Source: Candidatus Giovannonibacteria bacterium (GTDB lineage Bacteria > Patescibacteriota > Minisyncoccia > JACPKW01 > UBA11713). From it: a stretch of 64,000 nt of DNA. The notes under the pieces are model-generated. The model worked only from the letters and a program-made list of their open reading frames with translations. It did no database searches and was not told the DNA's origin. This document shows, piece by piece, positions 6,324-59,269 of the stretch; positions within the stretch are counted from its first letter, which is position 1, and each line of letters opens with the position of its first letter. The stretch covers positions 2,025 through 66,024 of the forward strand of contig JACPKW010000005.1 in NCBI GenBank assembly GCA_016186825.1. The letters are read 5' to 3'. The position numbers and the translations under genes were made by a program.

Positions 6324-6439
6324 TCTGTATCGGCGGCTGCCTACTTTCCCCTTACGAGTATCATCGGCAGTACAGCGTTTTACGACTCTGTTCGGAATGG
6401 GAAGAGGTAGTTCCACTGCCTCAAGCCACCGAAACAGAA
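6324..6439 (-). rRNA. rrf: 5S rRNA
   Basis: Minus strand reads TTCGGTGGC...CCCATTCCGAACAGAGTCGTAAAACGCTGTACTGCCGATGATACTCGTAAGGGGAAAGTAGGCAGCCGCCGA. This matches the 5S core (CCCAUNCCGAAC, GCCGAUGGUAC, AGUAGG) and terminal helix I. Confidence 0.75.
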
Positions 6440-6686
6440 AATCCAAATAAAATAATTTTCGCCAGTTCGGAGAATTTATATCTCCGAAAAAAAATAAAAG
6501 AACGACAATATTTCGATCCGATTTTCCTCCGCTCCGCCAGTTAGCGGATTGCGGAACGAATCACTCAGATCGGAGCGAGCTCGACTTATTAGTACTTCTC
6601 GGCTGAACGCCTTACGGCGCTTACACCTGAAGCCTATCAACGTGGTAATCTTCCACGAGTCTTAACGATTCCTAATCTTGGGGCAT

Positions 6687-6717
<31 letters not shown>

Positions 6718-6797
6718 ACTTAGCGACATAGCTACCCAGCGATGCTCTTGGCAGAACAGCTGGTAGACCAGAGGTCACCTCCTCCCGGTCCTCTCGT

Positions 6798-7584
6798 CAT
6801 GTTTAAACCCCTATTTCTAGGAGCATAGACTATATCTTCATCCCGCTGCATGCATGCAGAGGGAGTCGGCATCTTACCTATAGAAACCTGTCTTTTTATT
6901 TAAAAGACCTTCCAGTTTATATAAGTCTGTCGCGCATGGCGACAAGTCGTTACGGGGTCAAGCCTAAAACTTTTGATAATTCTTCGGATGTTTTCTTCGC
7001 TCGCGACTGATAATTTTCAGTCTGGATCCGAAGTAAGATATCCCGCAATTTATATTTTTGATCATTCTTTAATAAATCAAAATTTTTTCCTTGCAAGATG
7101 CGAGCTGCTTTTAAAATCTCAATTGTCTGAATTCTTTTAAACTTGATGAAAGGCAGCAATGCTTTCAGAACACGCTCGGAACCTCTATATCCATTTATGC
7201 GCAACTCTGTCATTCCATCATTGCGATTGGATAAATACCCTATTCCCAATCTTTTCTGAACCCAGAAAAGCGGTTTCGCGTGCCTCGTATCTTGATAAAA
7301 ACAAATGGTGAACATAAAGCGCCACCCTCTTTTACTATCATTACGATGTTTAATCTGAAGCATAATACTACCATCACCATCAAGAAATCCAGCAATGTAA
7401 GCAAGCTCTTCAGTTTTAAGCCGACTTCCCACGGTATTGTCTTAAAAATTTTCTGGTCCTCAAGTATATCGTACCACATCTAGGACCTTTAGAATGTGGA
7501 TATGCAACCAGAAAATTTATGAAGATTCCACCGTTATAAGCCGAATTTTCAATCCCGATTACTCGGGAAAGTAGCAATTTTTTA
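6798..7584 (-). mobile_element. group I-type intron in 23S rRNA (sarcin-ricin loop region) carrying a LAGLIDADG homing endonuclease gene
   Basis: The exon sequence ...GGGGGGTTCTCCCTAGT is interrupted, then resumes at ACGAGAGGACCGGGAGG. The insert ends in G and follows a U, as group I introns do. It contains ORF 6950-7432. Confidence 0.65.
6950..7432 (-). CDS. LAGLIDADG homing endonuclease (single-motif, I-CreI-like)
   Basis: Motif LAYIAGFLDGDGSI near the N-terminus. 160 aa. Sits inside the 23S insertion in the sense orientation. Confidence 0.8.
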   Translation of the reverse strand: MGSRLKTEELAYIAGFLDGDGSIMLQIKHRNDSKRGWRFMFTICFYQDTRHAKPLFWVQKRLGIGYLSNRNDGMTELRINGYRGSERVLKALLPFIKFKRIQTIEILKAARILQGKNFDLLKNDQKYKLRDILLRIQTENYQSRAKKTSEELSKVLGLTP

Positions 7585-7707
7585 CTAGGGAGAACCCCCC
7601 TCAAGAATCAACGCCTGCAGTAGATAGGAGACCAACCTGTCTCACGACGGTCTGAACCCAGCTCACGTACCTCTTTAATTGGCGAACAGCCAAACCCTTG
7701 GGAGCTC

Positions 7708-8449
7708 ATTTGTCGTTTTCCCGCGTTACTGCGGGTATCAGACTATGCCATCACCATATTTCAATTGTCGCCAATTGAAACTTAGGTGCGAACCGTATTA
7801 TAGATTTTTTAATCTATCTCGCGATGCTCCAAAAAGCATCGCTCAGTCGTTAGAGGAGATATGTTCTTAGATCATTGCCGCAAAATTTTTCCGTCGATTT
7901 TTGGATCGGACGTTAAATTTCGACAATGTATCTGCCAATCGTGCTACGCGCCTCAGATCTCGAAATTCCCTGATGGGAGTTTCTATAATCTTCTGCGCAA
8001 AATCTATTTGCTGTTGTTTCATTCTGGAATAAGGACGAACATAAGAAAGAACTCGCAAGATTTCTTTTTGATCTCTTGTAATCCAATCACATGTTGTCCG
8101 ATTCGTTCGAATTTTTCCACAACCGAGAATCTCGGTCATGCACAAAAGATCTTTTCTGTGCTTTTGCGTTACTTTCAATTCAATACGAACTCGAAAACGA
8201 AACTTTTTCTCATTATGAGGTTCGATGATCGCCATAATGGCGCCATCGCCGTCAATGAGACCAGCAATATATGCACAATCGACTTCAGAACATCTCTTTC
8301 CTACGGCGTTAACCTTCATGAGTATATTATACCTGGGACCTGCAAACTTTGCATATCCCAAGCGTATATTTATGAATAGGCCTTCACCGTTTTGGGCTCG
8401 TTTAATTACTCTGACGTTTCCATCAGAGAGAGAAGTTATGTTTTCTCCA
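7708..8449 (-). mobile_element. second group I-type intron in 23S rRNA (about E. coli position 2500) with a LAGLIDADG homing endonuclease gene
   Basis: The exon CGATGTCGGCTCATCTCATCCTGGGG is interrupted and resumes near ...GAGCTCCCAAGGGTTTGGCTGTTCGCC. The insert contains ORF 7867-8361. Confidence 0.65.
7867..8361 (-). CDS. LAGLIDADG homing endonuclease
   Basis: Motif CAYIAGLIDGDGAIM. 164 aa. Sense orientation inside the 23S intron. Confidence 0.8.
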   Translation of the reverse strand: MGYAKFAGPRYNILMKVNAVGKRCSEVDCAYIAGLIDGDGAIMAIIEPHNEKKFRFRVRIELKVTQKHRKDLLCMTEILGCGKIRTNRTTCDWITRDQKEILRVLSYVRPYSRMKQQQIDFAQKIIETPIREFRDLRRVARLADTLSKFNVRSKNRRKNFAAMI

Positions 8450-10020
8450 CCCCCAGGATGAGATGAGCCGACATCGAGGTGCCGAACTCCGCCGTCGCTG
8501 TGGACGCTCGGGCGGAACTAGCCTGTTATCCCCGGAGTAGCTTTTATCCGTTAATCTTTGGCGCCATCTACTGGCCACCGTCGGTTCACTAGATTCTGCT
8601 TTCGCACCTGCTCGACCTGTCCGTCTCGCAGTTAAGCCGGCTTATCCTCTTACAGGTCCAGCGCGATTTCCATCCGCGCTAAGCCGACCTTAATAAACTC
8701 CTCCGTTACTTTTTAGGAGGATTGCGCCCCACACAAACTGCCCACCAGACACTGTTCCCATCCAGTTTCCCCGCGCTTTTTTCAATTTTCTAAAAAAAGC
8801 GCGGGGTTCTGGATAGGTTAGGACATAAGTCGCCGAAGATGGGTATTTCACTGTTGGCTCCGTCCCGCCCAAAAGCGGGACATCAAAGCCTCCCCACTAT
8901 GCTACGCATCGAAAACTTAAACCCAATATCAAGTTGCAGTAAAGCTTCCGGGGTCTTTTCGTCTAACTGCAGGTAGCCGGCATCTTCACCGGCATCGCAT
9001 TTTCACCGGGCTGCTCCCCGAGACAGTCCCCCAGTCGTTACGCCTTTCGTGCGCGTCGGAACTTACCCGACAAGGAATTGCGCTACCTTAGGACCATTAT
9101 AGTTATGGCCGACATTGACGAGGGCTTCGGACGCTCAGCTGCTCCGCTTACGCTACACAACTTCGCGAATTTACAATTTACAATTTCTAATTTCCAAACA
9201 ATTTTTGAAAATTGAAAATTAATAATTGAAAATTCGGTTGCGAAGCAAAAGCGAAGCAACCGGCTTCGTTAACCTTCTCGCATTGGTCAGGCGTCACCCC
9301 CTATACATCCTCTTACGAGTTCGCAGGGAGCTGTGTTTTTGATAAACAGTCGCCAGGGGTACTTTCGTTGCAGCCGACGCTCCGCATTAGAATTTCCAAT
9401 TTCTAATTCTTCAATTTTCATTGAGTTTCCAATGAATTAATTTCCAAACGTTTGGAAATTGAAAATTGTTACTTGAAAATTCCGATGCGAAGCATCGGCA
9501 GGTCTTATCCCTAAGTTACGACCGCTTTTTTGCCGAGTTCCTTGGGGAGCACTCACTCGTTCGCCTTGGGCTACTCGCCCCACCCACCTGTGTCGGTTTA
9601 CGGTACGGTTTCCTTCAATTAACCTAGAAGTTTTTCTTGGAAGTACGTTTGCGAAGATTTCTCAATCCGAAGAAAAAGATTTTTAAATCGCCTGGAGATG
9701 CCTTGCGGCGCCGGGCGGATTTGCCTGCCCGTCTCCTCGCGACTCAAACACGAATCCAATAACGTGCCTTCGCTACGGCACTCCGTCACTCCATCGAATG
9801 AAGGAAGTCACGGAATATTAACCGTGTGTCCATCACCTGCGGCTTTCGCCATCGGCTTAGGACCGACTAACCCTTGGCTGATAATCATTGCCAAGGAAAC
9901 CTTGGGTTTACGGCGCAGCGGTATTTCACCGCTGTTGTGGTTACTTGTGCCAACATTCTCACTTCTCTGGCGTCCATCCCGGCTCACGCCGTGGACTTCA
10001 CTCGCCAAAGAACGCTCTCC

Positions 10021-10621
10021 TACCAATTAGTGCTTGAATTTTGGAGGGGAATCTCACGACTCCCCTTACATCCTTTCGTTATTTTTTCTTTTTATTGTCT
10101 TTTACGCTGGATTGCGTAGTGAATGAACAGCGCAAGCTTATCAGCACATTCGTATATAACTCTATCGATTTCCCATTCATCCTTGGACGACAATTTTTTA
10201 ATGCCCCGGTTTTTCAACTCTTCGCGAACATCCATGGTCAGCTTGGTATGAATTCCAAGCCGCATTCCATCCAGATTTGGTTTTTCCAACACCATGACCG
10301 TTCTCCTTTCGTTATTTTTTCTTTCCGTTTCTCTTCTCTTGATGCAAGACCAACGTCGCAGTTCGCAAGAATTCACGAGTTAAGCATGGTCTATTCCACC
10401 CATCATCCATCCATGCCCATGTGATTATCTCTGTATGTGCGGAGTGAACGAACCATCTGCGCTTGTACTTTAGCGCGATGCCTTTCAGCATACATCGATC
10501 TTCTTTTGAAAGCCGTCATCATTCGAATATTCCGAGCGATGCGTAATCACGAGAACTTTCGATTCCATTTTCACCTCCAATGAACTAAAAATTTTTTTTC
10601 CAAAATTCAAGCACTAATTCC
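10021..10621 (-). other. intervening sequence (IVS) in 23S helix 45, closed by a perfect 20-bp inverted repeat
   Basis: aattagtgcttgaattttgg (10021-10040) pairs with ccaaaattcaagcactaatt (10602-10621). The 561-nt insert replaces the helix-45 tetraloop between GTACCGAAGGTGAGG and GGTAGGAGAGCGTTC, which is E. coli 23S ~1164-1185, the classic RNase III-processed IVS site. Confidence 0.6.
10092..10376 (-). CDS. IVS-encoded small basic protein (94 aa), candidate 23S-IVS protein
   Basis: Sense-strand ORF entirely inside the helix-45 IVS: MNSCELRRWSCIKRRETERKNNERRTVMVLEK... Function unknown. Confidence 0.35.
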   Translation of the reverse strand: MNSCELRRWSCIKRRETERKNNERRTVMVLEKPNLDGMRLGIHTKLTMDVREELKNRGIKKLSSKDEWEIDRVIYECADKLALFIHYAIQRKRQ

Positions 10622-11496
10622 TCACCTTCGGTACTCTATTTAACCCCGATCATCTGCGGCGCAAGGTCTCTTAGCGAGTGAGCTGTTACGCACTCTTTAA
10701 AGGATGGCTGCTTCTAAGCCAACCTCCTCGATGTTTCAGAAACCTCACCACCTCGCTTGTACTTAATAGAGATTTTGGGACCTTAGATTGAGATTTGGGC
10801 TGTTTCCCTTTCGACCGACGGAGCTTAGCCCCCGTAGTCTGACTACCTGAGTAAACCCGCTGGCATTCGGAGTTTGATTGGTCGTCCGAGATTTCTCCCT
10901 GTGACGACCATCCAGTGCTCTACCTCCAGCGGTTATCTCAAGCGCTAGCCCTAAAGCTATTTCGGAGAGAACCAGCTATTACCAAGTTCGATTAGCTTTT
11001 CACTCCTACCCCCAACTCATCCGATGGCGTTGTACGACCAAACGGTTCGGGCCTCCAGCCGTCTTTCGACGACCTTCGCCCTGGCCAGGGGTAGCTCACC
11101 TGGCTTCGGGTCTATTATTTAATGCATTTAAATCTTAGTTCCGTCCCAATTTTCGAACGGAACTAAAATCTAGTTCGCCCTTTCAGACTCGGTTTCCCTG
11201 CGCGTACGGGCACAAAAGCCCTTACACAAGCAATAAACAATAACTCGTTGGCTCATTCTTCAATAGGCACACCATCACCGCGCACAGCGCGGAAGCACCA
11301 AATAACAAGCACCAAGCTCCAAATAATTTTAAATAACCAATTTTCAATTCTCAAAAAAAATTTGAAACTTGAATTTTGGAATTTGGAATTTATTTGTAAT
11401 TTGGATTTTGGAATTTGGAATTTCCGTGCTATGCACGGCTCTGATTCCTTGTAAGCATATGGTTTCAGGTACTATTTCACCGCCCTCACCGGGCTG

Positions 11497-11534
<38 letters not shown>

Positions 11535-12848
11535 ACTTCGAAAGTATTTAGCCTTAGGAGTGTAGTTCTCCTTGCTTCCTCCGAACCATTCTTTGTTCGA
11601 AGTACTCAAGAAAATCACCGCCACTATATATAAATATACAGGTGCAGGACCCCGCTTTTCAGCAGGGTATCAAGGAGCATAAATCTGTTTTCGCCTACAG
11701 GGCTATTACCTTCTTTGGCGAAGCTTTCCAGCTTTCTTCAGCTAACGAGATTTATTTAATCGGCTCCTTTCCGGCGCTATCCCGCAAACCTCCTGAAATT
11801 CAGAAAGAATGCGGGATGCTCCAGAACGATACAATCTTTCAACCCCAAGCACGTAATCCTTGCGGACTATGTGCTTGGTTTGGGCTTCTCCCTTTTCGCT
11901 CGCCGCTACTAAGGGAATGTTCACATCTCGCTAACGCTCGCTTCAATTATCAATATGCAATTTCTAATTTTCAAAAAATAAATTAATTGAAAATTATTGA
12001 AAATTGCAAAATTGGAAATTAAAAATTTCGAACGTTAGTGAGATATGGTTGTTTTCTTTTCCTCCGGGTACTGAGATGTTTCACTTCCCCGGGTGCGCTC
12101 CGCGCTCTGCACGGAATTTTCAATTTTCAGTTCTCAATTCACAATAAATTTTCAGTGAATTAATTTTCAAACGTTCGAAAATAGGAAATTGATAATTGAA
12201 AATTCCGTGCAAAGCACGGTCTCCGTGGTTTGCACGGAGGGGTTTCCCCATTCGGACATCGTCGGATCAAAGGTTGCTCAACACCTCCCCGACGCTTATC
12301 GCAGTTACGCCACGTCCTTCATCGCCTTTCGAAACCTAGGCATCCACCATACGCCCTTATTTGCCCGCTCCGATCTGAAAGATCCGCCAGAACTTACTTG
12401 GCGAAATCAGATCGAAATATTGTGTCCCGATTCGCAAGTGCTCTTTTTGCGAATCGAGAATCTCCCGATTTTGTTTACAAAATCGGGACTCTTTTTTATT
12501 TAGTTATTTTGCGATTGTTGCCCCATCAGAATGTTGTGTTCCGATGGAGCTACCTGTTTCAATTTTTAAGCTGCATTCACCTACCCGCTTAATTTTGCAC
12601 CTGCAAATTTTGGCGGGTTAGCTACCGGCGTTTGGATTCGCTATTTCACTCATCCAAGCGTCGAGAGCCAATTTCTAACTTTTTATCTAACTTTTTTAAA
12701 CCTCGCCGGGCCTGCCTGCCGGCTGCAGGGACGGGTTCATTAATTAAAAAATCCGCCGTGAAGCGGATTACACATCAAGACTAGGCGTGATTTCATCCGC
12801 TTCTAAAGTTAAGTTTTAATAAAACAAACACCATAAATTGTGCTTTTC

Positions 12849-27815: not shown

Positions 27816-29081
27816 TTGAACATTAAAAAACTTAGAAAGGAGGATACAAACTTGCAGCAGCCATCTTTAGGAATACAAAGTTTGGTCGAGAAAACCCTTG
27901 GGAAACTGGCGCTGGAAGAAACAGCGCGGCTGATTGGTGTCGATGTGAGCGATTTGGTAAAAGCCCTTGAAATCGCGAAAAGCAGTGACGGATATCGCCA
28001 CAAGAAGATTCTTAAAAAACGCGGGAAAGGATATCGTCGCATAGATGTGCCGCACAAGGATCTCAAGTGGGTTCAGCGCGCCTGCCACATCAACCTTTTA
28101 CTGCGCCATTTCAAGCCAACGCCAATCTGCCATTCATTCGTAGGACGGCGCTTTGAAAAGGATTCACTCCACTGGATATTTGGGCGAAGCGTAATTTCAG
28201 GAGCGTGGGCGCATTTAGGAGTTCCGCCCGACGAAGAGCCGGACCCAAAGAGCAACTCAATTAATTGGAGGAAGCCGCGATCCCAACTTGCGATAGATTT
28301 CAAAGACGCTTTTCCAAGCGTTTCGCGGACAAGGATTAAAGAAATCTTGCAGAAATTACTCGAGCAAACAGGGAAATATCAAGCTGGGGCCGATATCATT
28401 GCTGAAATCCTGGTTGACCTTACAACTTGGAACGGCGTCTTACCTCAAGGAGCGCCGACCTCGCCTGTTCTTTTCAATCTCGCCTGCAGAGATCTAGATG
28501 AAATTCTCATCGGCGAATTTTCAGATGAAGAACAAAAGAGCAGAATCAAGATCACTCGGTTCTGCGACGATATCTCGGTTACGCGGCTCTCAAAAAAAAT
28601 CGGGTTAAAGACTAGGGGAAAGATCGAGCGGCTGATTCATAAGAACGGATTCCAGATCAACGAAGAAAAAACCGTGCACTGGCAGGATTCCCATCATGTT
28701 TTGCGGATCAATAGCATTAATCTTGATCCGATTAATCGGCGCGTTTTTCTTCCCCGCGAAACTATCGAGCGCTTCAGGTACCTGCTTTACAGATCGTGGC
28801 AGGAACTTGAAGAAAGTTTCTCATGGTGGCTCGTGCTCGGAAGAGACTCGGATAATACAATCAAGTATTTTCTAAATCAGGCGGCATACGGTAGAATCGC
28901 CGGAATTGTCGGCTATTGCCGAATGATTTATAAAGAAGACTCCGAGATGCCGCTTAGACTCTTTAGTTGGAATCCCGATTTAAGCGGCTATTGGGATCAG
29001 GAACGCTTTGAGCAGATTTTCGCGGATATCAGTAAAGGGTCGCTTATTCAGGATCTTGAAGATCATCTGCACTATTTCTAA
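27816..29081 (+). CDS. stand-alone reverse transcriptase (retron or defence-associated RT-like; not DGR-type)
   Basis: RT motifs 0-7 are present: KKRGKGYRRIDVPHKDLKWVQRA (motif 0/1), IDFKDAFPSV (2), LPQGAPTSPVLFNL (QGxxxSP, 4), RFCDDISV (YxDD, 5), FQINEEKT (6). Start could be ATG 27816 or TTG 27852, which lies after the AGGAGG RBS. Confidence 0.8.
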   Translation: MNIKKLRKEDTNLQQPSLGIQSLVEKTLGKLALEETARLIGVDVSDLVKALEIAKSSDGYRHKKILKKRGKGYRRIDVPHKDLKWVQRACHINLLLRHFKPTPICHSFVGRRFEKDSLHWIFGRSVISGAWAHLGVPPDEEPDPKSNSINWRKPRSQLAIDFKDAFPSVSRTRIKEILQKLLEQTGKYQAGADIIAEILVDLTTWNGVLPQGAPTSPVLFNLACRDLDEILIGEFSDEEQKSRIKITRFCDDISVTRLSKKIGLKTRGKIERLIHKNGFQINEEKTVHWQDSHHVLRINSINLDPINRRVFLPRETIERFRYLLYRSWQELEESFSWWLVLGRDSDNTIKYFLNQAAYGRIAGIVGYCRMIYKEDSEMPLRLFSWNPDLSGYWDQERFEQIFADISKGSLIQDLEDHLHYF

Positions 29082-32890: not shown

Positions 32891-34258
32891 TTATTTATTA
32901 CCTTTCTCAATTAACTCTTCGACCTTATGTTTGGCTTCTACGAGAAGTTCTTTTGCTTTTTTACGGGCTTCGTGAGATTGGCGCACTAAATCAGCAATTT
33001 TTTGTTGAACCGGTTTTGGTAAAATTGGAATATAAAAACTTTTAACTTGTGTATCAGAAATTTTAGGTTGTGCAGTTTGGCTCATTTCTTTTTCAAATTG
33101 CAATTTGCCAACAATTGATTGCAAAACAAGTGTTAAATATTCTGATATTAAAAAGTTTCTATCTTTAATAGAGAACATCGCAGTATTATTCGATATAAAA
33201 GCATCATTGAATTCATCACTAATGTTGGTAAGAGTGCCCACACTGCCAATAGACGCAAATATGATATCTCCGGTTTTAATCCTCGTTTCATTCTTAGGTT
33301 GAAAATTTTTGATATAAACAAGCTTAGATCTTTCGAGTCGTCCTGATGAAAAGTCTCCACCTCGTATATAAGGTGTTCCATTTTCATCGTCATAAAATCT
33401 TGGATTGATCAAAGAACCACGTTTAACTGATGCAATTTCGGAAAGTTTTTTAACATCTGATTTTTTTCTTATTTGGTTTAGCATTTGTTCATATTTCGGT
33501 TGAAAATACTCCGCATCCATTCGGTTTGCAGATTTGATTTCAGAAAAGTTAACAACGCTCCACAATTTTTCTTCGTTCTCAAAGTCTTTTAATCCCAATT
33601 CTTCCAAAAGTAATGTTTCCGCCTGGGAATATATAAATTTAGACTTCTCGAATTCATGCCATGACCAATTAGATAAATCACGAATCTTTTCTTGTGTCGT
33701 TATAGGCAAAACGGAAATTCTCATCAGCTTTAGTTCTTCTGCATTCACATTTGCTTGATTAACCGCCCGCCGAGTATATTTTCTGATCTGCCTTAACCCG
33801 TAAGAAGAATTTAGAAAAATGTTTAAATAGTCCGCTAAAATTTCTCCGCCTGATTTTACTCTTAAGCGTATTAAATAAGAAGCAAAAACTGATTTTAAAC
33901 TATCCAATTTATAAATACCGGTTCTACCTACAAATTCTTCCGAATTCACTCGATTAAAAAAGACGTCGTCTTTTTTAATCGCAAATTGGTTAAAAATTGA
34001 TTTTGGAATATCAGCAAAGCGGATATCGTCATTAAAAAGAAAACCATAATCAATATTATCCATTTTGAAAATTGGATAACCTTTTTTCTCGTCATTCATG
34101 GCTTGCGAAAGTCCATATTGGCATAACTCTAAAACTTCGCCAATAGGCACCCAATTTCCTTTTGTAAAATCAATAAAATACTCCCGCTGATAATATTCCG
34201 CATCCAGCCGATGCGCGCCCTCAAGTTGAGATTTTTGGATGACGGAAAAAACTGCCAT
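32891..34258 (-). CDS. restriction-modification specificity (S/B) subunit with two target-recognition domains
   Basis: HsdS-like two-TRD organisation with coiled-coil ends. Likely start MAVFSVIQKS at 34258, one nt after the upstream stop. The track ORF extends to 34321. Confidence 0.7.
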   Translation of the reverse strand: MAVFSVIQKSQLEGAHRLDAEYYQREYFIDFTKGNWVPIGEVLELCQYGLSQAMNDEKKGYPIFKMDNIDYGFLFNDDIRFADIPKSIFNQFAIKKDDVFFNRVNSEEFVGRTGIYKLDSLKSVFASYLIRLRVKSGGEILADYLNIFLNSSYGLRQIRKYTRRAVNQANVNAEELKLMRISVLPITTQEKIRDLSNWSWHEFEKSKFIYSQAETLLLEELGLKDFENEEKLWSVVNFSEIKSANRMDAEYFQPKYEQMLNQIRKKSDVKKLSEIASVKRGSLINPRFYDDENGTPYIRGGDFSSGRLERSKLVYIKNFQPKNETRIKTGDIIFASIGSVGTLTNISDEFNDAFISNNTAMFSIKDRNFLISEYLTLVLQSIVGKLQFEKEMSQTAQPKISDTQVKSFYIPILPKPVQQKIADLVRQSHEARKKAKELLVEAKHKVEELIEKGNK

Positions 34259-34259
34259 A

Positions 34260-34889
34260 TTATTCTCTAGTTTCAAAGTATTTAAAAGTCTCCGCCATCT
34301 CTTTTTTAATGTATGATCCAAAGCTGTCGATCCTGAAGTTAAATCCTTCCATAGTTTTACGAGTTTTTATACGCTGCATTTCAAATTTAATTTGACATAA
34401 AAATTCAAGTAGAAAATCCCGCAGGCGTTTTTCGCTAATGCGCGCTTCTGTGAATTTCTTCTCAAACTCCTCGGAAACGAAATAGCCCGTTTCTCCCCTG
34501 TGTCCAACAATAACGTGACGCCACTCTGATATAAGATCAAAATCTTTTTTTATAGTTACAAATTTTTCTTCAAGCCAAATTAAAAGATTGGGGTGAGTTA
34601 AATTTTGAGCGACATCCCACACATTAAAAACGCTATATTTTCGATCAAATAATTTGAATAATTGCAAGACAACAAAATTCTCAAGCGCCACGTGTGAAAA
34701 AGAAATTACAGAATTTCCGAAACCTGTTTTTATACCTCTGTCGTGTCTAAATTTCCACATTGCATCAGCTATAATGCGCGCATGAATTACTTGTTCGACC
34801 AATTCAGAAAAACGAGAATATAATTTTTCTTGATCACGAAATATTTCGTTTTTTCTTTGTTTTACCTCTTCTTTAATTTGAGTATTCAT
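34260..34889 (-). CDS. hypothetical protein embedded between the RM A and S subunits; possible HEPN-like (RxxxxxH) protein
   Basis: 209 aa. Contains RHVIVGH (Rx5H). Translationally coupled to the S subunit. Confidence 0.4.
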   Translation of the reverse strand: MNTQIKEEVKQRKNEIFRDQEKLYSRFSELVEQVIHARIIADAMWKFRHDRGIKTGFGNSVISFSHVALENFVVLQLFKLFDRKYSVFNVWDVAQNLTHPNLLIWLEEKFVTIKKDFDLISEWRHVIVGHRGETGYFVSEEFEKKFTEARISEKRLRDFLLEFLCQIKFEMQRIKTRKTMEGFNFRIDSFGSYIKKEMAETFKYFETRE

Positions 34890-35042
34890 ACGGTTTAAAT
34901 ATTATTTATTTTCATCAGGCCAAAAAGATTTTGCCCAATATCTAACGTTGCTGAAATCTACAAAAACAAAAATGTTTCCATACTTTTCGGGATTAAATAG
35001 ATAATAGTTTCTTCTAAAGTCGTCTAAGCCATCCATAATCTG

Positions 35043-37013
35043 TCAGAAATTAAATTTCCGCTCGTTTGCAAATTTCTTAAATCCGTCCGCAATTTCATCC
35101 AAATCGTGGTCTAAAACTTTTCGGCCTTTTGGGTCATGAACATAATTTCCATTCGCGTCTTTTTTGTAAATGTAATCCCCGGAGTTGTCTTTGCCGCCCT
35201 TTTTAGAAACTGCCATAAAAATTGGATAATCTTTTTGCGGCTCGTTGCCATTACCCCATTTCTGTAAAAATAAAACTGATGTTTTAGTTCCGGTATGAGG
35301 CTTGAAAGTATTTCCGTGCAACCCGACGACCGCTAAAATGCGCGCTTTATCAAATAGATATGCGCGCACGTTTTCCATATTGGTATTATTCAAAACACCT
35401 TGCGGTAAAACTATTGCCATTCGACCGCCCGGGCGAATCAAATCAAGCGCGCGTTCGATAAAAAGAATATGCCGCTCAATTTTATTTACAAGTTTATTTT
35501 TCTTTTTTGCTAAATTGTATTGGCGCATAAGCCCTGAATCCTTTATTTCTCCCGCAAAAGGCGGATTCGTTAGTAATACATCAAAATTCATATAATGAAA
35601 TGTTTTTCGGTTTTCTGAATTATCAGTGCCGCTTTTTAAATCCAGAAGTCGTGTTTGGAGTTTTGAGCGCGCATCGAGCATTTGGGAATCTTCGCCCTGC
35701 CATTCGCGCGGATCGAGAGAATTTAATTTAAACATGTGCGATCTGCCATCGCCCGCGATTAACATTAGAGCTCGAGACACTTTTGAAATTTCTTCAGCAA
35801 AATCAATTCCCCAAATATATTCTTTGGCATACTCCTGCATAGCTTCGTCTGTTCCATTTAAGTGATTATCTTTTACCCAATACATGGTGTTTATCAAAAA
35901 ACCTCCCGAGCCTGCCGCTGGATCAATTACATATTCGTCTTCTTTTGGATCGAGCATTTTTACAGCCATATTTATTACATGGCGCGGAGTAAAATACTGC
36001 CCCTTTTTCCCTTTTGCTACCTCGGGAATGAGATATTCAAAAGCTTCATCGATTATAGAAAGATCGGACCCAAAAAGACGCGCCTTTTCCAATTCACCAA
36101 CTACAATCGAAAGGTGCTCCGCTGAAAGATTTATATTTTCTTGTTCGTAAAACGTTCCAGGCCATCTTTTTATGGCTTTTTTAAAAAGATCGTTAATTGT
36201 TGAATAGGTTTTAGATGGATCGCGATATTTGCGGAAAAAAACTTCTTTATCAGCTCGATGCAATTTTGCTTCTTGTTCATCGTATAATTTCGCGTAAATT
36301 AATTTAAAAACTTCTGTAAAAACATCAACGCCAGCATTTGCAAGCACAAGCTCCTCCATCGATTCGATTACGTCTTTAAGATTTACTTTTGTTGTCGTGT
36401 ACTCAAAATAGGTTTTCTTCGCTTCGAGCAGATCATCAATTGTTTGGCCTTCCGCGGGGATTTCCGGCAAGGTATCATCAAATTCTTTAGGATATGGCCT
36501 GTACAATATTGTTTTTTTAAAGCCATTCGACCAGACGCCGATTTCAGAACCTTCAGAATTTAGATAACTTTTGAGCTGATCGATTCCTTTTTCTTCGGTG
36601 GGACTTTTTACTTCGACGATTATATAAGGTGTTATGCCGTCTTTTTTAAAAACAACAATATCTGCGGCTTTTGCATGAATTTCTCGACCGAAATGAATAC
36701 TCCTCTCCGTTTCCATTCGTTCAAAAGGATAACCGTAATGCTTATTCAACTTATAGAGCCAAAGCTGGCGCACAATTTCCTCGGGCTTCGATGTTTCTTT
36801 TTTAGCATCGAAAATAAAACGCGACTTGCCTGTTTTCAAATCTTTTAGAGAATAACGGTCTTTTTCTTCTTCCGTGATCTGCAGAATATCGTTAATGTCG
36901 ATATTCTCAAATTCTTTCAGACCAAAAGCTATATCAGAATTTTTAAAAATTTTTCCAATTATTTCTTCCGTTCGAGTTGGTTTCTTTGTTGGCATTATTT
37001 TACTGGTTTCCAA
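35043..37013 (-). CDS. BcgI-like Type IIB RM subunit A: N-terminal PD-(D/E)XK (HsdR_N-type) nuclease fused to gamma-class N6-adenine DNA methyltransferase
   Basis: N-terminal ADIVVFKKDGITPYIIVEVKSP (D...EVK nuclease motif). MTase motif I VIDPAAGSGGFL and motif IV NPPFAG. 656 aa. No separate HsdR nearby. Confidence 0.65.
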   Translation of the reverse strand: METSKIMPTKKPTRTEEIIGKIFKNSDIAFGLKEFENIDINDILQITEEEKDRYSLKDLKTGKSRFIFDAKKETSKPEEIVRQLWLYKLNKHYGYPFERMETERSIHFGREIHAKAADIVVFKKDGITPYIIVEVKSPTEEKGIDQLKSYLNSEGSEIGVWSNGFKKTILYRPYPKEFDDTLPEIPAEGQTIDDLLEAKKTYFEYTTTKVNLKDVIESMEELVLANAGVDVFTEVFKLIYAKLYDEQEAKLHRADKEVFFRKYRDPSKTYSTINDLFKKAIKRWPGTFYEQENINLSAEHLSIVVGELEKARLFGSDLSIIDEAFEYLIPEVAKGKKGQYFTPRHVINMAVKMLDPKEDEYVIDPAAGSGGFLINTMYWVKDNHLNGTDEAMQEYAKEYIWGIDFAEEISKVSRALMLIAGDGRSHMFKLNSLDPREWQGEDSQMLDARSKLQTRLLDLKSGTDNSENRKTFHYMNFDVLLTNPPFAGEIKDSGLMRQYNLAKKKNKLVNKIERHILFIERALDLIRPGGRMAIVLPQGVLNNTNMENVRAYLFDKARILAVVGLHGNTFKPHTGTKTSVLFLQKWGNGNEPQKDYPIFMAVSKKGGKDNSGDYIYKKDANGNYVHDPKGRKVLDHDLDEIADGFKKFANERKFNF

Positions 37014-37630
37014 TAGCCGTTTTTAAAAACAGACACTACTTTTCCTTTTAATTCGACCTCATCTGTAAATGGGATAATATCGTACTTTGGATTTTCTGGT
37101 TTTAGATAAACATATGGAGGCGTATCTTCGGACATAAACCTCTTTATTGTGCTACTATCTCCAATTTGCGCATAAACAATTTCGTTATTAACAAATTCTT
37201 TTTTTGTCTGGACTAAAACAGCATCGCCGTCATCAATTCCGGCATTTATCATGGAATCTCCTGAAATTTTTAGAATGAAAATTTCCTCATTTAGTTTGGA
37301 AACATTTTCTGATAAAGTCTGCCATTCGCCCGAGAGCTCGATCGAATGAATGGGGGTTCCTGCGCTTGAATATCCAACAAAGGGGACTAGAGGAGGCGCC
37401 CCAAGAACATCATAAGCCAGAGGTAAAAGGGCAATGCTACGCGCCCCTTCGTTTCTTCTTATGTATTTGCCAGATTTTAGTTTTTCAAGAAGGTCAATTA
37501 TAGACTGATTAGAGGAAACACCAATATTTTCACGCATTTCTTCAAATGTGGGAGCATATCCAGAGGATTGAATATAGTTATAAATTATCTCCAAAAGCTG
37601 TTTTTGCCTTGCAGTTATGGCTTTTTTCAT
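36995..37630 (-). CDS. LexA-like repressor (HTH + S24 peptidase)
   Basis: N-terminal HTH. LKISGDSMINAGIDDGDAVLV S24 Ser/Lys dyad region. Overlaps the start of the RM A gene by 19 nt. Confidence 0.75.
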   Translation of the reverse strand: MKKAITARQKQLLEIIYNYIQSSGYAPTFEEMRENIGVSSNQSIIDLLEKLKSGKYIRRNEGARSIALLPLAYDVLGAPPLVPFVGYSSAGTPIHSIELSGEWQTLSENVSKLNEEIFILKISGDSMINAGIDDGDAVLVQTKKEFVNNEIVYAQIGDSSTIKRFMSEDTPPYVYLKPENPKYDIIPFTDEVELKGKVVSVFKNGYWKPVK

Positions 37631-37775
37631 AAAAATAGTATAACCCGACTATTTGCTCTGGAAAAGTTCGTGCTGTGGACAACTAGCCGTAAACTGGCTT
37701 ATCTCGGAAGGTTTTTGAGATAAAAAGAGCGGGCCGCGATCGCGGGCCTTCTCTTTGCTAGCAAAATCTTCAATC

Positions 37776-57277: not shown

Positions 57278-57384
57278 CTATTCTAACGCCTACTCGCGCT
57301 AGATAGAGTGGACAAACACCCTTTAATACTTTTTAAAAACAAAACCATTGCAGGTGAACGGACGTTTACTTATAATGAACCAAT

Positions 57385-57954
57385 ATGCCAAGCGATAAAT
57401 ACTTAGAAAAAATTATAAATTTCTATAAAGAAAGGAAGCGAATGCCGAGTTACAGCGAAATTGCGCGCTTAGCCGGTTTTGGCTCCAAAAACGCCGCCTA
57501 TAAACTCGTACAAAAACTGCTTGATGAAAATATTCTCGAAAAAGATTCCTCGGGAAAACTCCTTCCCGGACGCGCTTTTAATTCCGTTAGGGTTTTGGGA
57601 ACAGTTGAAGCAGGCTGGCCTTCCCCCGCCGAAGAAGAGCTTTTGGATACGATGACGCTCGATGAATTTTTGATCGCAAACAAAGAAGCTACTTATATGC
57701 TCACCGTGAAAGGCGATTCCATGAAAGATGCGGGAATAATTTCTGGCGATCTTGTTTTGGTGGAGCGCGGCAAGCAGGCAAAGGACGGAGATATAGTAAT
57801 CGCGGAGGTGGACGGAGAATGGACGATGAAATATTTCCGAAAGCGCGGAAGTAAAATTTTTCTCGAGCCCGCAAATCAAAAATTTTCAAAAATTTTTCCG
57901 AAGGAAACGTTAAAAATTGCCGCCATCGTAAAAGCGGTAATTCGAAAATATTAA
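57385..57954 (+). CDS. LexA/UmuD-like S24 peptidase with N-terminal HTH
   Basis: VKGDSMKDAGIISGDLVLVE...K motif. 189 aa. Directly upstream of a Y-family polymerase. Confidence 0.8.
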   Translation: MPSDKYLEKIINFYKERKRMPSYSEIARLAGFGSKNAAYKLVQKLLDENILEKDSSGKLLPGRAFNSVRVLGTVEAGWPSPAEEELLDTMTLDEFLIANKEATYMLTVKGDSMKDAGIISGDLVLVERGKQAKDGDIVIAEVDGEWTMKYFRKRGSKIFLEPANQKFSKIFPKETLKIAAIVKAVIRKY

Positions 57955-57955
57955 A

Positions 57956-59269
57956 ATGCGCTCTCCTTTGATTTTGAGCTCTTTCCCCCGCGCTATCCTC
58001 CATATAGACGGAGACGCTTTTTTCGCGGCCTCTGAACAAGCGAGAAATCCGAAACTGAAAGGAAGGCCCGTTATCACCGGAAAAGAGCGCGGGATCGTGG
58101 CCTCCATGAGCTATGAAGCGAAAGCGCGGGGTGTTACGCGCGCGATGCGCCTTTTTGAAGTTAAAAAAATTTGTCCGGATGCGGTAATACTCCCCTCCGA
58201 CTACGAAACCTACAGCATTTTATCAAAAAGGCTCTTTAATATCGTAAGAAGATACACTCCGGATGTGGAAGAATACGGGATTGATGAATGCTTTGCGGAT
58301 ATCACGGGATTAAGGCGCCCGTTTAGAATGTCTTATCATGATATCGCGGAAAAAATTAAAAAAGAATTGGATTCGGAACTGGGTTTTACTTTTTCGATAG
58401 GCCTCGCTCCAAACAAAGTGCTCGCAAAAATTGCGTCAAAGTGGGCAAAACCTTCCGGACTCACCGCTATTCCGGGGCGCCTCATCCATATTTATCTAGA
58501 AGAGCTCGCGGTAGAAAAAGTATGGGGCATCGGTCCGCAAACCACTGCATTTCTGGCGCATCACGGCATTAAAACCGCGCTTGATTTCGCGCTTCGAAAA
58601 GAGCCTTGGATCAGAAAAAATTTATCAAAGCCATTTTTTGAGATCTGGCAGGAATTAAACGGCAACTTCGTTTTGAATTTAGACACTTCGGAAAAAACCA
58701 GCTATCAATCGATTTCAAAAGTAAAAACTTTCTCCCCCGCTTCAAACGACCGCGCTTTTGTTTTTGCCCAGCTTTCAAAAAATATCGAAAACGCCTGCAT
58801 GAAAGCGCGGCGCTACAAGCTTGCCGCAAACGGTGCGGCGCTTTTTTTGCGGCAGGAAAATTTCGAATGCCGCGGGATGGAAATAAAATTCAGCCGCAAA
58901 ACCGCGTTTGCGCACGAAATAATAAACCTCGCCAAATCTTCTTTTGAAGATATTTTTAATCCAAAAATTTTATACCGCTCGACTGGAGTCGTCCTTTTAA
59001 AGCTGGAGGAAGAAAATGAAATGCAGCTCGATCTTTTTGGCCGCGAGCTTCTCGCTCAAAAAATGACAAAAATTTATGAAAGCATAGACGCTATTCGCAA
59101 TAAATACGGCAAACACACCGTCTTTTTCGGCTCGAGCTTCCAGGCAAACAAATTTTCCCAGCATTTGGGCGAACGCGGCGTTGTCCCGCAAAGAAAACAA
59201 AATCTCCTGAAGGGCGAAACCGCCCGCAAACGCCTCGCAATTCCCGTCTTCTTGGGAAAGATTTCTTAA
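57956..59269 (+). CDS. Y-family (DinB/UmuC-type) translesion DNA polymerase
   Basis: ILHIDGDAFFAASEQ catalytic motif. 437 aa. Start 2 nt after the upstream stop. Confidence 0.85.
   Translation: MRSPLILSSFPRAILHIDGDAFFAASEQARNPKLKGRPVITGKERGIVASMSYEAKARGVTRAMRLFEVKKICPDAVILPSDYETYSILSKRLFNIVRRYTPDVEEYGIDECFADITGLRRPFRMSYHDIAEKIKKELDSELGFTFSIGLAPNKVLAKIASKWAKPSGLTAIPGRLIHIYLEELAVEKVWGIGPQTTAFLAHHGIKTALDFALRKEPWIRKNLSKPFFEIWQELNGNFVLNLDTSEKTSYQSISKVKTFSPASNDRAFVFAQLSKNIENACMKARRYKLAANGAALFLRQENFECRGMEIKFSRKTAFAHEIINLAKSSFEDIFNPKILYRSTGVVLLKLEEENEMQLDLFGRELLAQKMTKIYESIDAIRNKYGKHTVFFGSSFQANKFSQHLGERGVVPQRKQNLLKGETARKRLAIPVFLGKIS

Follow-up and report, generated by a model that had tools for sequence, protein, structure and literature searches.

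Why should a LexA-type repressor gene stand at the head of a restriction operon? The question is raised by a 64,000-nt stretch of the genome of a Candidatus Giovannonibacteria bacterium (contig JACPKW010000005.1), which we call the window at its full length. Four same-strand open reading frames (ORFs) on its minus strand fill positions 32891-37630, the coordinates given by an initial annotation made from the letters of the sequence. In the direction of transcription the order is lexA, a gene for a fused restriction-modification (RM) subunit, what appears to be the remnant of a NYN-domain gene, a 209-aa HEPN-type gene and the gene for a specificity (S) subunit. From sequence comparison, we think it rather probable that these genes form a self-repressed, damage-inducible, Type IIB-like restriction operon, which would be transcribed from a single promoter upstream of lexA and would carry a HEPN gene as cargo. 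The features of the operon are the following.

37731..37748, minus strand: GC-rich hairpin GGCCCGCGATCGCGGCCC, read from the sequence; a T-run follows at 37722-37726
37674..37682, minus strand: DnaA-box-like element TTGTCCACA, about 52 nt before the lexA ATG; consensus of the relatives GTTATCCACAG
37637..37664, minus strand: putative sigma-70-type operon promoter, from a promoter scan
37644..37661, minus strand: putative LexA operator CCAGAGCAAATAGTCGGG, an imperfect palindrome, from an alignment of 26 upstream regions and a position weight matrix (PWM)
36995..37630, minus strand: lexA (LexA-1), 211 aa, first gene of the operon, with winged-helix DNA-binding and S24 domains
35043..36995, minus strand: RM subunit, 650 aa, from Pfam and PADLOC, start codon set by homologs
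34902..35036, minus strand: putative NYN remnant, 44 codons, sharing the frame of the 209-aa gene, with a single TAA between the two
34260..34889, minus strand: 209-aa cargo gene, a putative divergent AbiU2-type HEPN protein and candidate abortive-infection RNase
32891..34258, minus strand, from its ATG: S subunit, 455 aa, two target recognition domains (TRDs), Methylase_S matched twice

LexA-1 scored 141.7 bits against the NCBIfam lexA equivalog TIGR00498 (cutoff 110.95), and both Pfam domains, LexA_DNA_bind and Peptidase_S24, were present, in agreement with the earlier claim that a LexA-like gene with helix-turn-helix (HTH) and S24 domains heads the module. Its predicted cleavage site is A90-G91. 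Across 24 homologs G91, S126 and K163 are invariant and position 90 is Ala in 23, with one Ala-to-Gly change; we take these residues to be the equivalents of A84-G85, S119 and K156 of Escherichia coli LexA. The clade is tight (55-74% identity, against 41% or less for the next LexAs), and this RM-linked clade has an invariant SNQS in the putative recognition helix.

The linkage of this lexA to the enzyme is far beyond chance. An enzyme-based scan with one genome per species found 54 loci, and lexA lay immediately upstream on the same strand in all 25 of those in which enzyme identity was at least 62% and upstream sequence was present. The LexAs of these 25 loci show 55-71% identity, and all of the loci come from Patescibacteria-type metagenome-assembled genomes belonging to many classes. 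Among about 27 loci from other phyla, with enzyme identity of 53% or less, none had lexA upstream. Three LexAs picked independently of the enzyme, from Ryanbacteria, Roizmanbacteria and Levybacteria, head the same series: lexA, a 646-652-aa HSDR_N_2/N6_Mtase gene, no or one cargo gene, and S. A metagenome scan with the LexA alignment gave a bimodal result: identity was 55-68% in 43 loci and did not exceed 41% in the others. Enough downstream sequence to judge the next gene was available for 36 of the 43; it belonged to this enzyme family in 30, was another methyltransferase or RM gene in five, and was of neither kind in one. As a control, no ORF with methyltransferase motif IV was found downstream on the same strand in the low-identity lexA loci outside the candidate phyla radiation (CPR; 0/21). 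Some metagenome loci may duplicate organisms of the genome set, and the counts are not fully independent.

On these conservation counts, chance adjacency of lexA and the enzyme was rejected; nor is the arrangement as a whole accidental, since dozens of independent loci repeat this gene order. Synteny was likewise rejected as an explanation of the lexA-enzyme linkage, as the flanks differ among loci and consist of housekeeping genes that vary from one to the next. A scan of viral contigs returned no relative of the enzyme, and there is therefore no sign of a phage-borne module.

The same lexA also precedes other restriction genes. In loci L078, L086, L096, L102 and L113, another RM type stands behind a lexA that belongs to this clade and shares its promoter and operator; the types seen in this place are an N6_N4_Mtase gene with an RE_TdeIII nuclease, a second nuclease-like N6_Mtase with a short S, and an Eco57I-type methyltransferase. 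Locus L109 carries lexA without a methyltransferase and has a uracil-DNA glycosylase (UDG) gene on the opposite strand. In L009 (4189-7457), a 620-aa protein fuses the LexA DNA-binding domain and S24 to an N6_N4 methyltransferase, beside an MvaI/BcnI-type nuclease, and its LexA-S24 part keeps the A-G site and the GNSM and KKF motifs.

Upstream of lexA, the promoter scan placed the -35 hexamer TTTCCA at 37664-37659 and the -10 hexamer TATACT at 37642-37637, with a 16-nt spacer; relatives have a clearer TTGAC...TATAAT in the same place. The layout of the 130 nt before lexA is kept among them: a DnaA-box-like GTTATCCACAG, the -35 (TTGAC), a palindrome filling the spacer, and TATAAT. This palindrome is conserved in the -35/-10 spacer of about 65 loci and is the predicted operator. 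Its family consensus is CC(C/A)GA(C/A)-N6-GTCGGG, and several relatives carry a perfect CCCGACTAWATAGTCGGG. When the operator PWM trained on the genome set was run on 43 independent metagenome loci, it gave one match, about 33 nt before the lexA ATG, in 40 of them. Neither the window nor 850 kb of related sequence, all of it neighbourhoods, contained a second LexA-1 operator of at least 20 bits. Taken together, the conserved same-strand linkage, the conserved palindrome and the invariant self-cleavage residues support the suggestion of the initial annotation that restriction is under LexA-type control. As a separate observation, the lexA promoter region of a Roizmanbacteria locus (L071-L073, 1944-6001) is shared divergently with an intein-containing, 1316-aa UvrD-helicase/PDDEXK_1 gene (AddA-like), and the LexA operator could there control a DNA-end-processing gene as well.

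The DnaA-box-like element accompanies lexA whatever RM type follows. The sequence TTATNCACA was found with at most one mismatch in 25/28 lexA upstream regions, against 9.4% of 130-nt background windows; it lies mostly at about -52 to -57 from the lexA ATG (full range -44 to -82), in either orientation, and the promoter region of the L009 fusion has one too (6821-6830). Across the whole window the DnaA-box count was at chance; a local cluster at 13.0-14.0 kb was dropped, as it sits among unrelated genes. Classical Gram-positive SOS boxes (CGAAC-N4-GTTCG) were fewer than chance in the window, and a loose palindrome search of it was at chance.

All four ORFs are real. Profile searches returned HSDR_N_2, N6_Mtase, Methylase_S, LexA_DNA_bind and Peptidase_S24, and the operon (GC content 0.34-0.38) is AT-richer than its surroundings (0.43 for the whole window). 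The stop codon of lexA overlaps the RM start codon by a single nucleotide (TAATG). An overlap of 19 nt, as given earlier, is wrong and came from an upstream TTG start; the lexA-to-RM gaps of relatives are typically a few to about 17 nt. The 209-aa ORF had been described as wedged between its neighbours with a 1-nt junction, which holds toward S (TAA, T at 34259, ATG) but not toward the RM gene, from which it is separated by a 153-nt spacer containing the 44-codon ORF. A terminator scan found no minus-strand terminator inside the operon. On the upstream side, the hairpin at 37731..37748 was not called by the consensus terminator scan; we take it as the probable terminator of the 149-aa gene upstream, in which role it would insulate the lexA promoter.

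The RM protein is taken as 650 aa long because every homolog (24/24) opens with MPTKKP, matching the ATG at 36995; the length of 656 aa reported earlier is that of the longest ORF (35043-37013). The protein consists of an N-terminal PD-(D/E)XK nuclease, a helical connector, a gamma-class N6-adenine methyltransferase and a C-terminal helix. Pfam matched HSDR_N_2 at residues 77-186 of the 656-aa ORF (E 2.6e-21) and N6_Mtase at 320-652 (E 7.6e-37), with Eco57I also matched. Motif I (DPAAGSGGFL, 358-367) and motif IV (NPPF, 477-480) are invariant in 23 of the 24 homologs, the remaining one being truncated there. The fusion of a nuclease to a gamma-class methyltransferase, which the initial annotation had read from motifs, is thus borne out by both domains and both motifs.

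The best relative of solved structure was RM.BsaXI (E 1.6e-28 with the single sequence, 7.4e-39 with the family profile). The next-best solved chains, a stand-alone adenine methyltransferase and Type I M subunits, reached 3.4e-21 or weaker with the profile, and Type I M subunits aligned over the methyltransferase core only (E 1e-21 or weaker). The nuclease domain by itself aligned to RM.BsaXI at 18.8 bits with the family profile. In BsaXI, the catalytic residues E73, D90, E105 and K107, which are conserved across Type IIB enzymes, have been found by mutagenesis to be essential for cleavage (PMC11997821). E97, D112, E128 and K130 of the RM protein align to them in the HMMER alignment and are invariant in 24 homologs, and a nuclease domain lacking its active residues was accordingly not what we found. 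As its architecture and its closest characterised relative are both Type IIB, we class it as Type IIB-like; the trait that defines this type, double-sided cleavage, would be predicted for it.

The reading of the last gene as one for an HsdS-like subunit with two TRDs is upheld by the two stretches of its 455-aa product that match Methylase_S, and many PADLOC Specificity_I models match it. In all related loci whose sequence extends far enough, an S gene lies downstream of the enzyme, with an identity of only 21-57%.

Between RM and S, the gap ranges from 11 to 2750 nt in 24 related loci and holds 0-4 same-strand genes. The 33 ORFs in these slots form about 30 unrelated clusters, and about 60% of the scanned slot genes had no confident Pfam match. 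Among the families that were recognised are DUF4145 (twice), HEPN_RiboL-PSP, HEPN_Cthe2314, NYN (three times), DUF3800 (twice), Trypsin_2 (twice), DUF2806, DUF6602 and CHAP. Judged by this content, the gap is a hypervariable slot for cargo, in which effectors of the abortive-infection type are enriched. The 44-codon ORF fits such turnover of genes. Over 39 aa its product has 77% identity to the N-terminal end of the protein from a complete NYN gene (220 aa) that occupies this slot in locus L060, and the DNA homology stops at the TAA; by this alignment it is the stump of an earlier slot occupant, an NYN-domain (RNase-type) gene.

For the present occupant, the 209-aa ORF, no above-threshold match was found in Pfam, NCBIfam or PADLOC, and its family had nothing in PHROGs. 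The family is tiny: a word-indexed search gave nine matches, and 19 clusters came from a set of 1.84 billion representatives. Pfam HEPN_AbiU2 (PF18734) matches 13/16 of its members (best E 4.3e-9). The window protein itself reaches E 0.01 and 15.7 bits, against a gathering cutoff of 26.8, and its link to HEPN_AbiU2 is transitive only, because its own score is below the cutoff and the match is that of its relatives. The family shares a W-R-x5-H motif (R124-x5-H130 in the window protein), in which H130 never varies and only two members lack R124, and an AlphaFold2 (AF2) model is an all-alpha bundle with a predicted local distance difference test (pLDDT) score of 81.8. A slot protein of L021 has a similar RHxxVGH motif, but its comparison with the family by hhalign was not significant. 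With moderate confidence, we regard the 209-aa protein as a HEPN protein of the AbiU2 type, though a divergent one, and as probably an RNase effector. This corrects its earlier description as a protein of unknown kind.

Homologs of the 209-aa gene lie in the RM-to-S slot of L065, divergent from the LexA-methyltransferase fusion of L009, and, in L001 (5280-10395), 4 nt after a 905-aa Type IIG-like enzyme; one further context has no RM system. About 0.7 kb beyond the homolog in L001 there are an S24-domain protein of 251 aa, with no HTH detected, and a PemK-type toxin.

If these parts work together as their sequences suggest, a LexA-1 dimer would bind the palindrome in the -35/-10 spacer and keep expression of the operon low and self-limited. 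DNA damage, or the DNA ends and single-stranded DNA that arise from phage attack, would activate RecA, which would promote self-cleavage of LexA-1 at A90-G91 through S126 and K163 and derepress the operon. RM and S would then assemble into a BcgI/BsaXI-like (RM)2S complex that needs no ATP-driven motor and in which S reads a bipartite site; the methyltransferase domains would mark host adenines and the PD-(D/E)XK domains would cut unmarked DNA near the site. The AbiU2-type cargo, likely an RNase, would be co-induced as a second, suicidal line of defence. Basal restriction of incoming DNA, or failed restriction and the phage replication that comes after it, would generate RecA-activating DNA, and the lifting of repression would bring more enzyme and more of the costly effector.

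Whether LexA-1 serves this operon or the whole cell bears on a second LexA encoded in the window.

57385-57954, plus strand: LexA-2, 189 aa, 121.3 bits on TIGR00498, above the cutoff
57956-59269, plus strand: Y-family (Pol IV/UmuC-like) polymerase, stop/start-coupled to LexA-2 (TAAAATG)

LexA-2 is 29% identical to LexA-1. Its promoter has a Cheo-like palindrome, TGAACGGACGTTTA (57355-57368), which resembles the Gram-positive GAAC-N4-GTTC box and lies next to a TATAAT (57371-57376), and its putative recognition helix, GSKNAAYKL, presumably is of the canonical kind when set against that of E. coli LexA. The related loci that we gathered held no homolog of LexA-2 or of the polymerase close enough for comparison, and recA, sought there for a shared operator, was found in one non-CPR locus only.

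LexA-1 might be the general SOS repressor, with restriction systems sitting downstream of it as on a preferred landing pad and forming one regulon member among many. It has the higher TIGR00498 score of the two paralogs; the constant unit is lexA with its promoter, which at least four methyltransferase or RM types follow; the neighbouring genes are of housekeeping rather than mobile-element type; the weak correlation between LexA and enzyme identities described below would fit as well, as would the locus without an RM system (L109). We give this reading substantial weight but consider it the less likely one, since it is the second LexA, with its canonical-looking helix and Cheo-like box, that is coupled to a classic type of SOS gene, and since the window and the 850 kb of related sequence showed the LexA-1 operator nowhere but at its own promoter, although this last point is weak, as that sequence covers neighbourhoods. 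Because a second LexA heads the Y-family polymerase behind a different operator, and because of the single-site PWM result, LexA-1 is most likely a paralog dedicated to its own operon. A wider form of this proposal, about which we are more doubtful than hopeful, is that a dedicated Patescibacteria LexA paralog mainly or only heads at least four RM types and could make restriction and a rotating set of Abi-type effectors damage-inducible, as an SOS-gated immunity cassette spanning the radiation, to which the DnaA-box-like element may add a link with replication.

The enzyme itself can also be read in other ways. RM and S could act as a methyltransferase only, for epigenetic marking, with a nuclease-like domain that is inactive or has another role: public records label the RM protein simply 'N-6 DNA methylase', and its conservation (73-84% identity to the window copy, 59-93% pairwise among relatives) is unusually high for a defence gene and could fit a housekeeping role. 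The invariance of the four residues essential for cleavage in BsaXI makes this very unlikely, and the cargo embedded in the operon is of the defence-effector type; moreover, the S subunits diverge as far as would be expected under pressure for new specificities. Hardly credible is an ordinary Type I system with its HsdR encoded elsewhere in the genome, for all that the best PADLOC model for the RM protein is 'MTase_I' (577 bits over the full length) and that S is of the HsdS type. The 64-kb window has no ORF longer than 656 aa, and hence none of HsdR size. In none of 21 related loci was there a helicase-like gene less than 5 kb from the module; the large ORFs in these stretches were on inspection transporters, RpoB, ClpB-like proteins, PBP1 or tRNA synthetases, and no HsdR stands beside more distant relatives or a Klebsiella plasmid copy. 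The methyltransferase itself bears an intact nuclease domain, as Type IIB enzymes do, and a Type IIB enzyme is its closest relative of solved structure. An HsdR just outside the module, which would have spoken for Type I, was thus looked for and not seen in the window or beside the 21 loci, and the assignment to a BcgI-like Type IIB system made in the initial annotation is supported.

Several observations weigh against the damage-inducible operon that we favour. The left half of the window's operator is degenerate (CCAGAG against CCCGAC) and its -35 is weak. The DnaA-box-like element is conserved but has no place in the model, nor does the model account for the high conservation of the catalytic subunit. 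Promoter-like matches within the AT-rich operon were at chance level in the promoter scan, and internal promoters are possible. The AF2 model of the RM subunit, built on an alignment of 20 sequences at 75-84% identity, was too poor to be used (pLDDT 45.6). Finally, the pairwise identities of LexA and RM are only weakly correlated (Spearman 0.18), and lexA and the RM genes therefore do not simply travel together, and the RM cassettes behind a resident lexA may be swapped.

CPR bacteria make up a large and mostly uncultured part of bacterial diversity, with tiny genomes and, according to published surveys, few CRISPR systems, and the regulation of their defences is largely obscure. The LexA network of Patescibacteria has reportedly been analysed by Sanchez-Osuna, Barbe and Erill in Environ Microbiol in 2017. 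We did not find a linkage of LexA to restriction systems in CPR in the searchable literature, which did not cover the 2017 study of the Patescibacteria SOS network, and part of what we describe may be in print. The enzyme type, HEPN genes within RM loci and repressor-controlled RM operons are each already known separately. As far as that literature goes, a radiation-wide LexA-headed RM operon with a rotating cargo slot, and the LexA-methyltransferase fusions, would be new. If the proposed control is true, it would give a simple rule for inducible innate immunity in CPR, in which a damage-cleavable LexA governs restriction and a swappable suicide-type effector, and it would add a further mode of RM regulation to that by C-proteins. 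New defence effectors could be mined from the hypervariable RM-to-S slot, and the enzyme family, whose catalytic subunits are 73-84% identical and whose S subunits are divergent, could supply new Type IIB specificities.

Two other features of the window were recorded. A 421-aa retron-type reverse transcriptase (RVT_1; 27816-29081, plus strand) is a candidate defence gene 4 kb from the operon; the NCBIfam retron St85 and TIR-RT models and the PADLOC retron reverse transcriptase models all matched below their family cutoffs. The 23S rRNA gene on the minus strand is matched in two pieces, 8998-12356 (model positions 15-2044) and 8531-8952 (2090-2472), with about 1.3 kb of extra sequence inside the first piece, and model positions 2473-2925 are unmatched before the 5S rRNA (6328-6433), a pattern that points to introns or large insertions in this gene (region 6328-12356).

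Among known systems, the operon is closest in its enzyme to the Type IIB systems BcgI and BsaXI, with which it shares a nuclease and a gamma-class N6A methyltransferase in one polypeptide, a separate HsdS-like subunit with two TRDs, and the lack of a translocase. The BcgI A subunit has 637 aa, close to the 650 aa of the RM protein. To our knowledge, neither a lexA gene heading the operon nor a cargo slot between RM and S has been described for BcgI or BsaXI. BsaXI is also distant in sequence, and its RM protein, of 916 aa, has extra 'knob' and paddle elements (PMC11997821). With Type I systems it has in common a methyltransferase core and an S subunit homologous to HsdM and HsdS, and bipartite recognition is expected; it differs in having no HsdR nearby and in the fusion of the nuclease to the methyltransferase. 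The best NCBIfam matches of the enzyme and of S are those of MADS, the methylation-associated defence system, namely the methyltransferase MAD2 and the S subunit MAD5, but the scores are far below the cutoffs (320 against 720 bits and 120 against 400 bits) and the window lacks the other mad genes. Relatives of the enzyme of about 920 aa, 48-50% identical and without LexA, occur in non-CPR phyla (L045, L047, L048, L051 and L057); these are followed by S and by conserved genes for proteins of about 347, 212, 663 and 508 aa within 6-9 kb, and look MADS-like.

In its predicted control, the operon recalls RM systems whose regulator is a C-protein or, as in the SsoII type, a methyltransferase that bears an HTH at its N-terminus (compare the review PMC3874152). 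There too a small DNA-binding repressor comes first in the RM operon or is fused to it, and it acts through an operator in the promoter from which it is itself expressed. The fusion of LexA to a methyltransferase in L009 parallels the HTH-methyltransferase fusions. The difference lies in the regulator, a LexA with an intact self-cleaving S24 domain, and the predicted input would therefore be DNA damage rather than gene dosage or the timing after transfer. As nuclease and methyltransferase are one polypeptide, the C-protein logic of delaying restriction is inapplicable. CBASS is subject to a CapH/CapP-type control, and other SOS-gated modules include LexA-repressed colicins and SOS-induced toxins such as SymE (PMC1891008). 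In all of these, as predicted here, a cleavable repressor ties a potentially self-harming function to DNA damage. Unlike in these modules, the unit under control would be a restriction enzyme with a variable Abi-type gene, and the linkage is near-universal in one radiation instead of sporadic. Lastly, the cargo has a counterpart in PrrC, an anticodon nuclease embedded in the Type I RM locus EcoprrI; AbiU2 is a HEPN family (PF18734). Here too a HEPN-type gene lies inside an RM operon, and the slots of relatives hold DUF4145, RiboL-PSP and Cthe_2314 HEPN genes and NYN genes; in contrast to EcoprrI, however, the slot lies between RM and S of a Type IIB-like system, and its content is replaced wholesale among close relatives.

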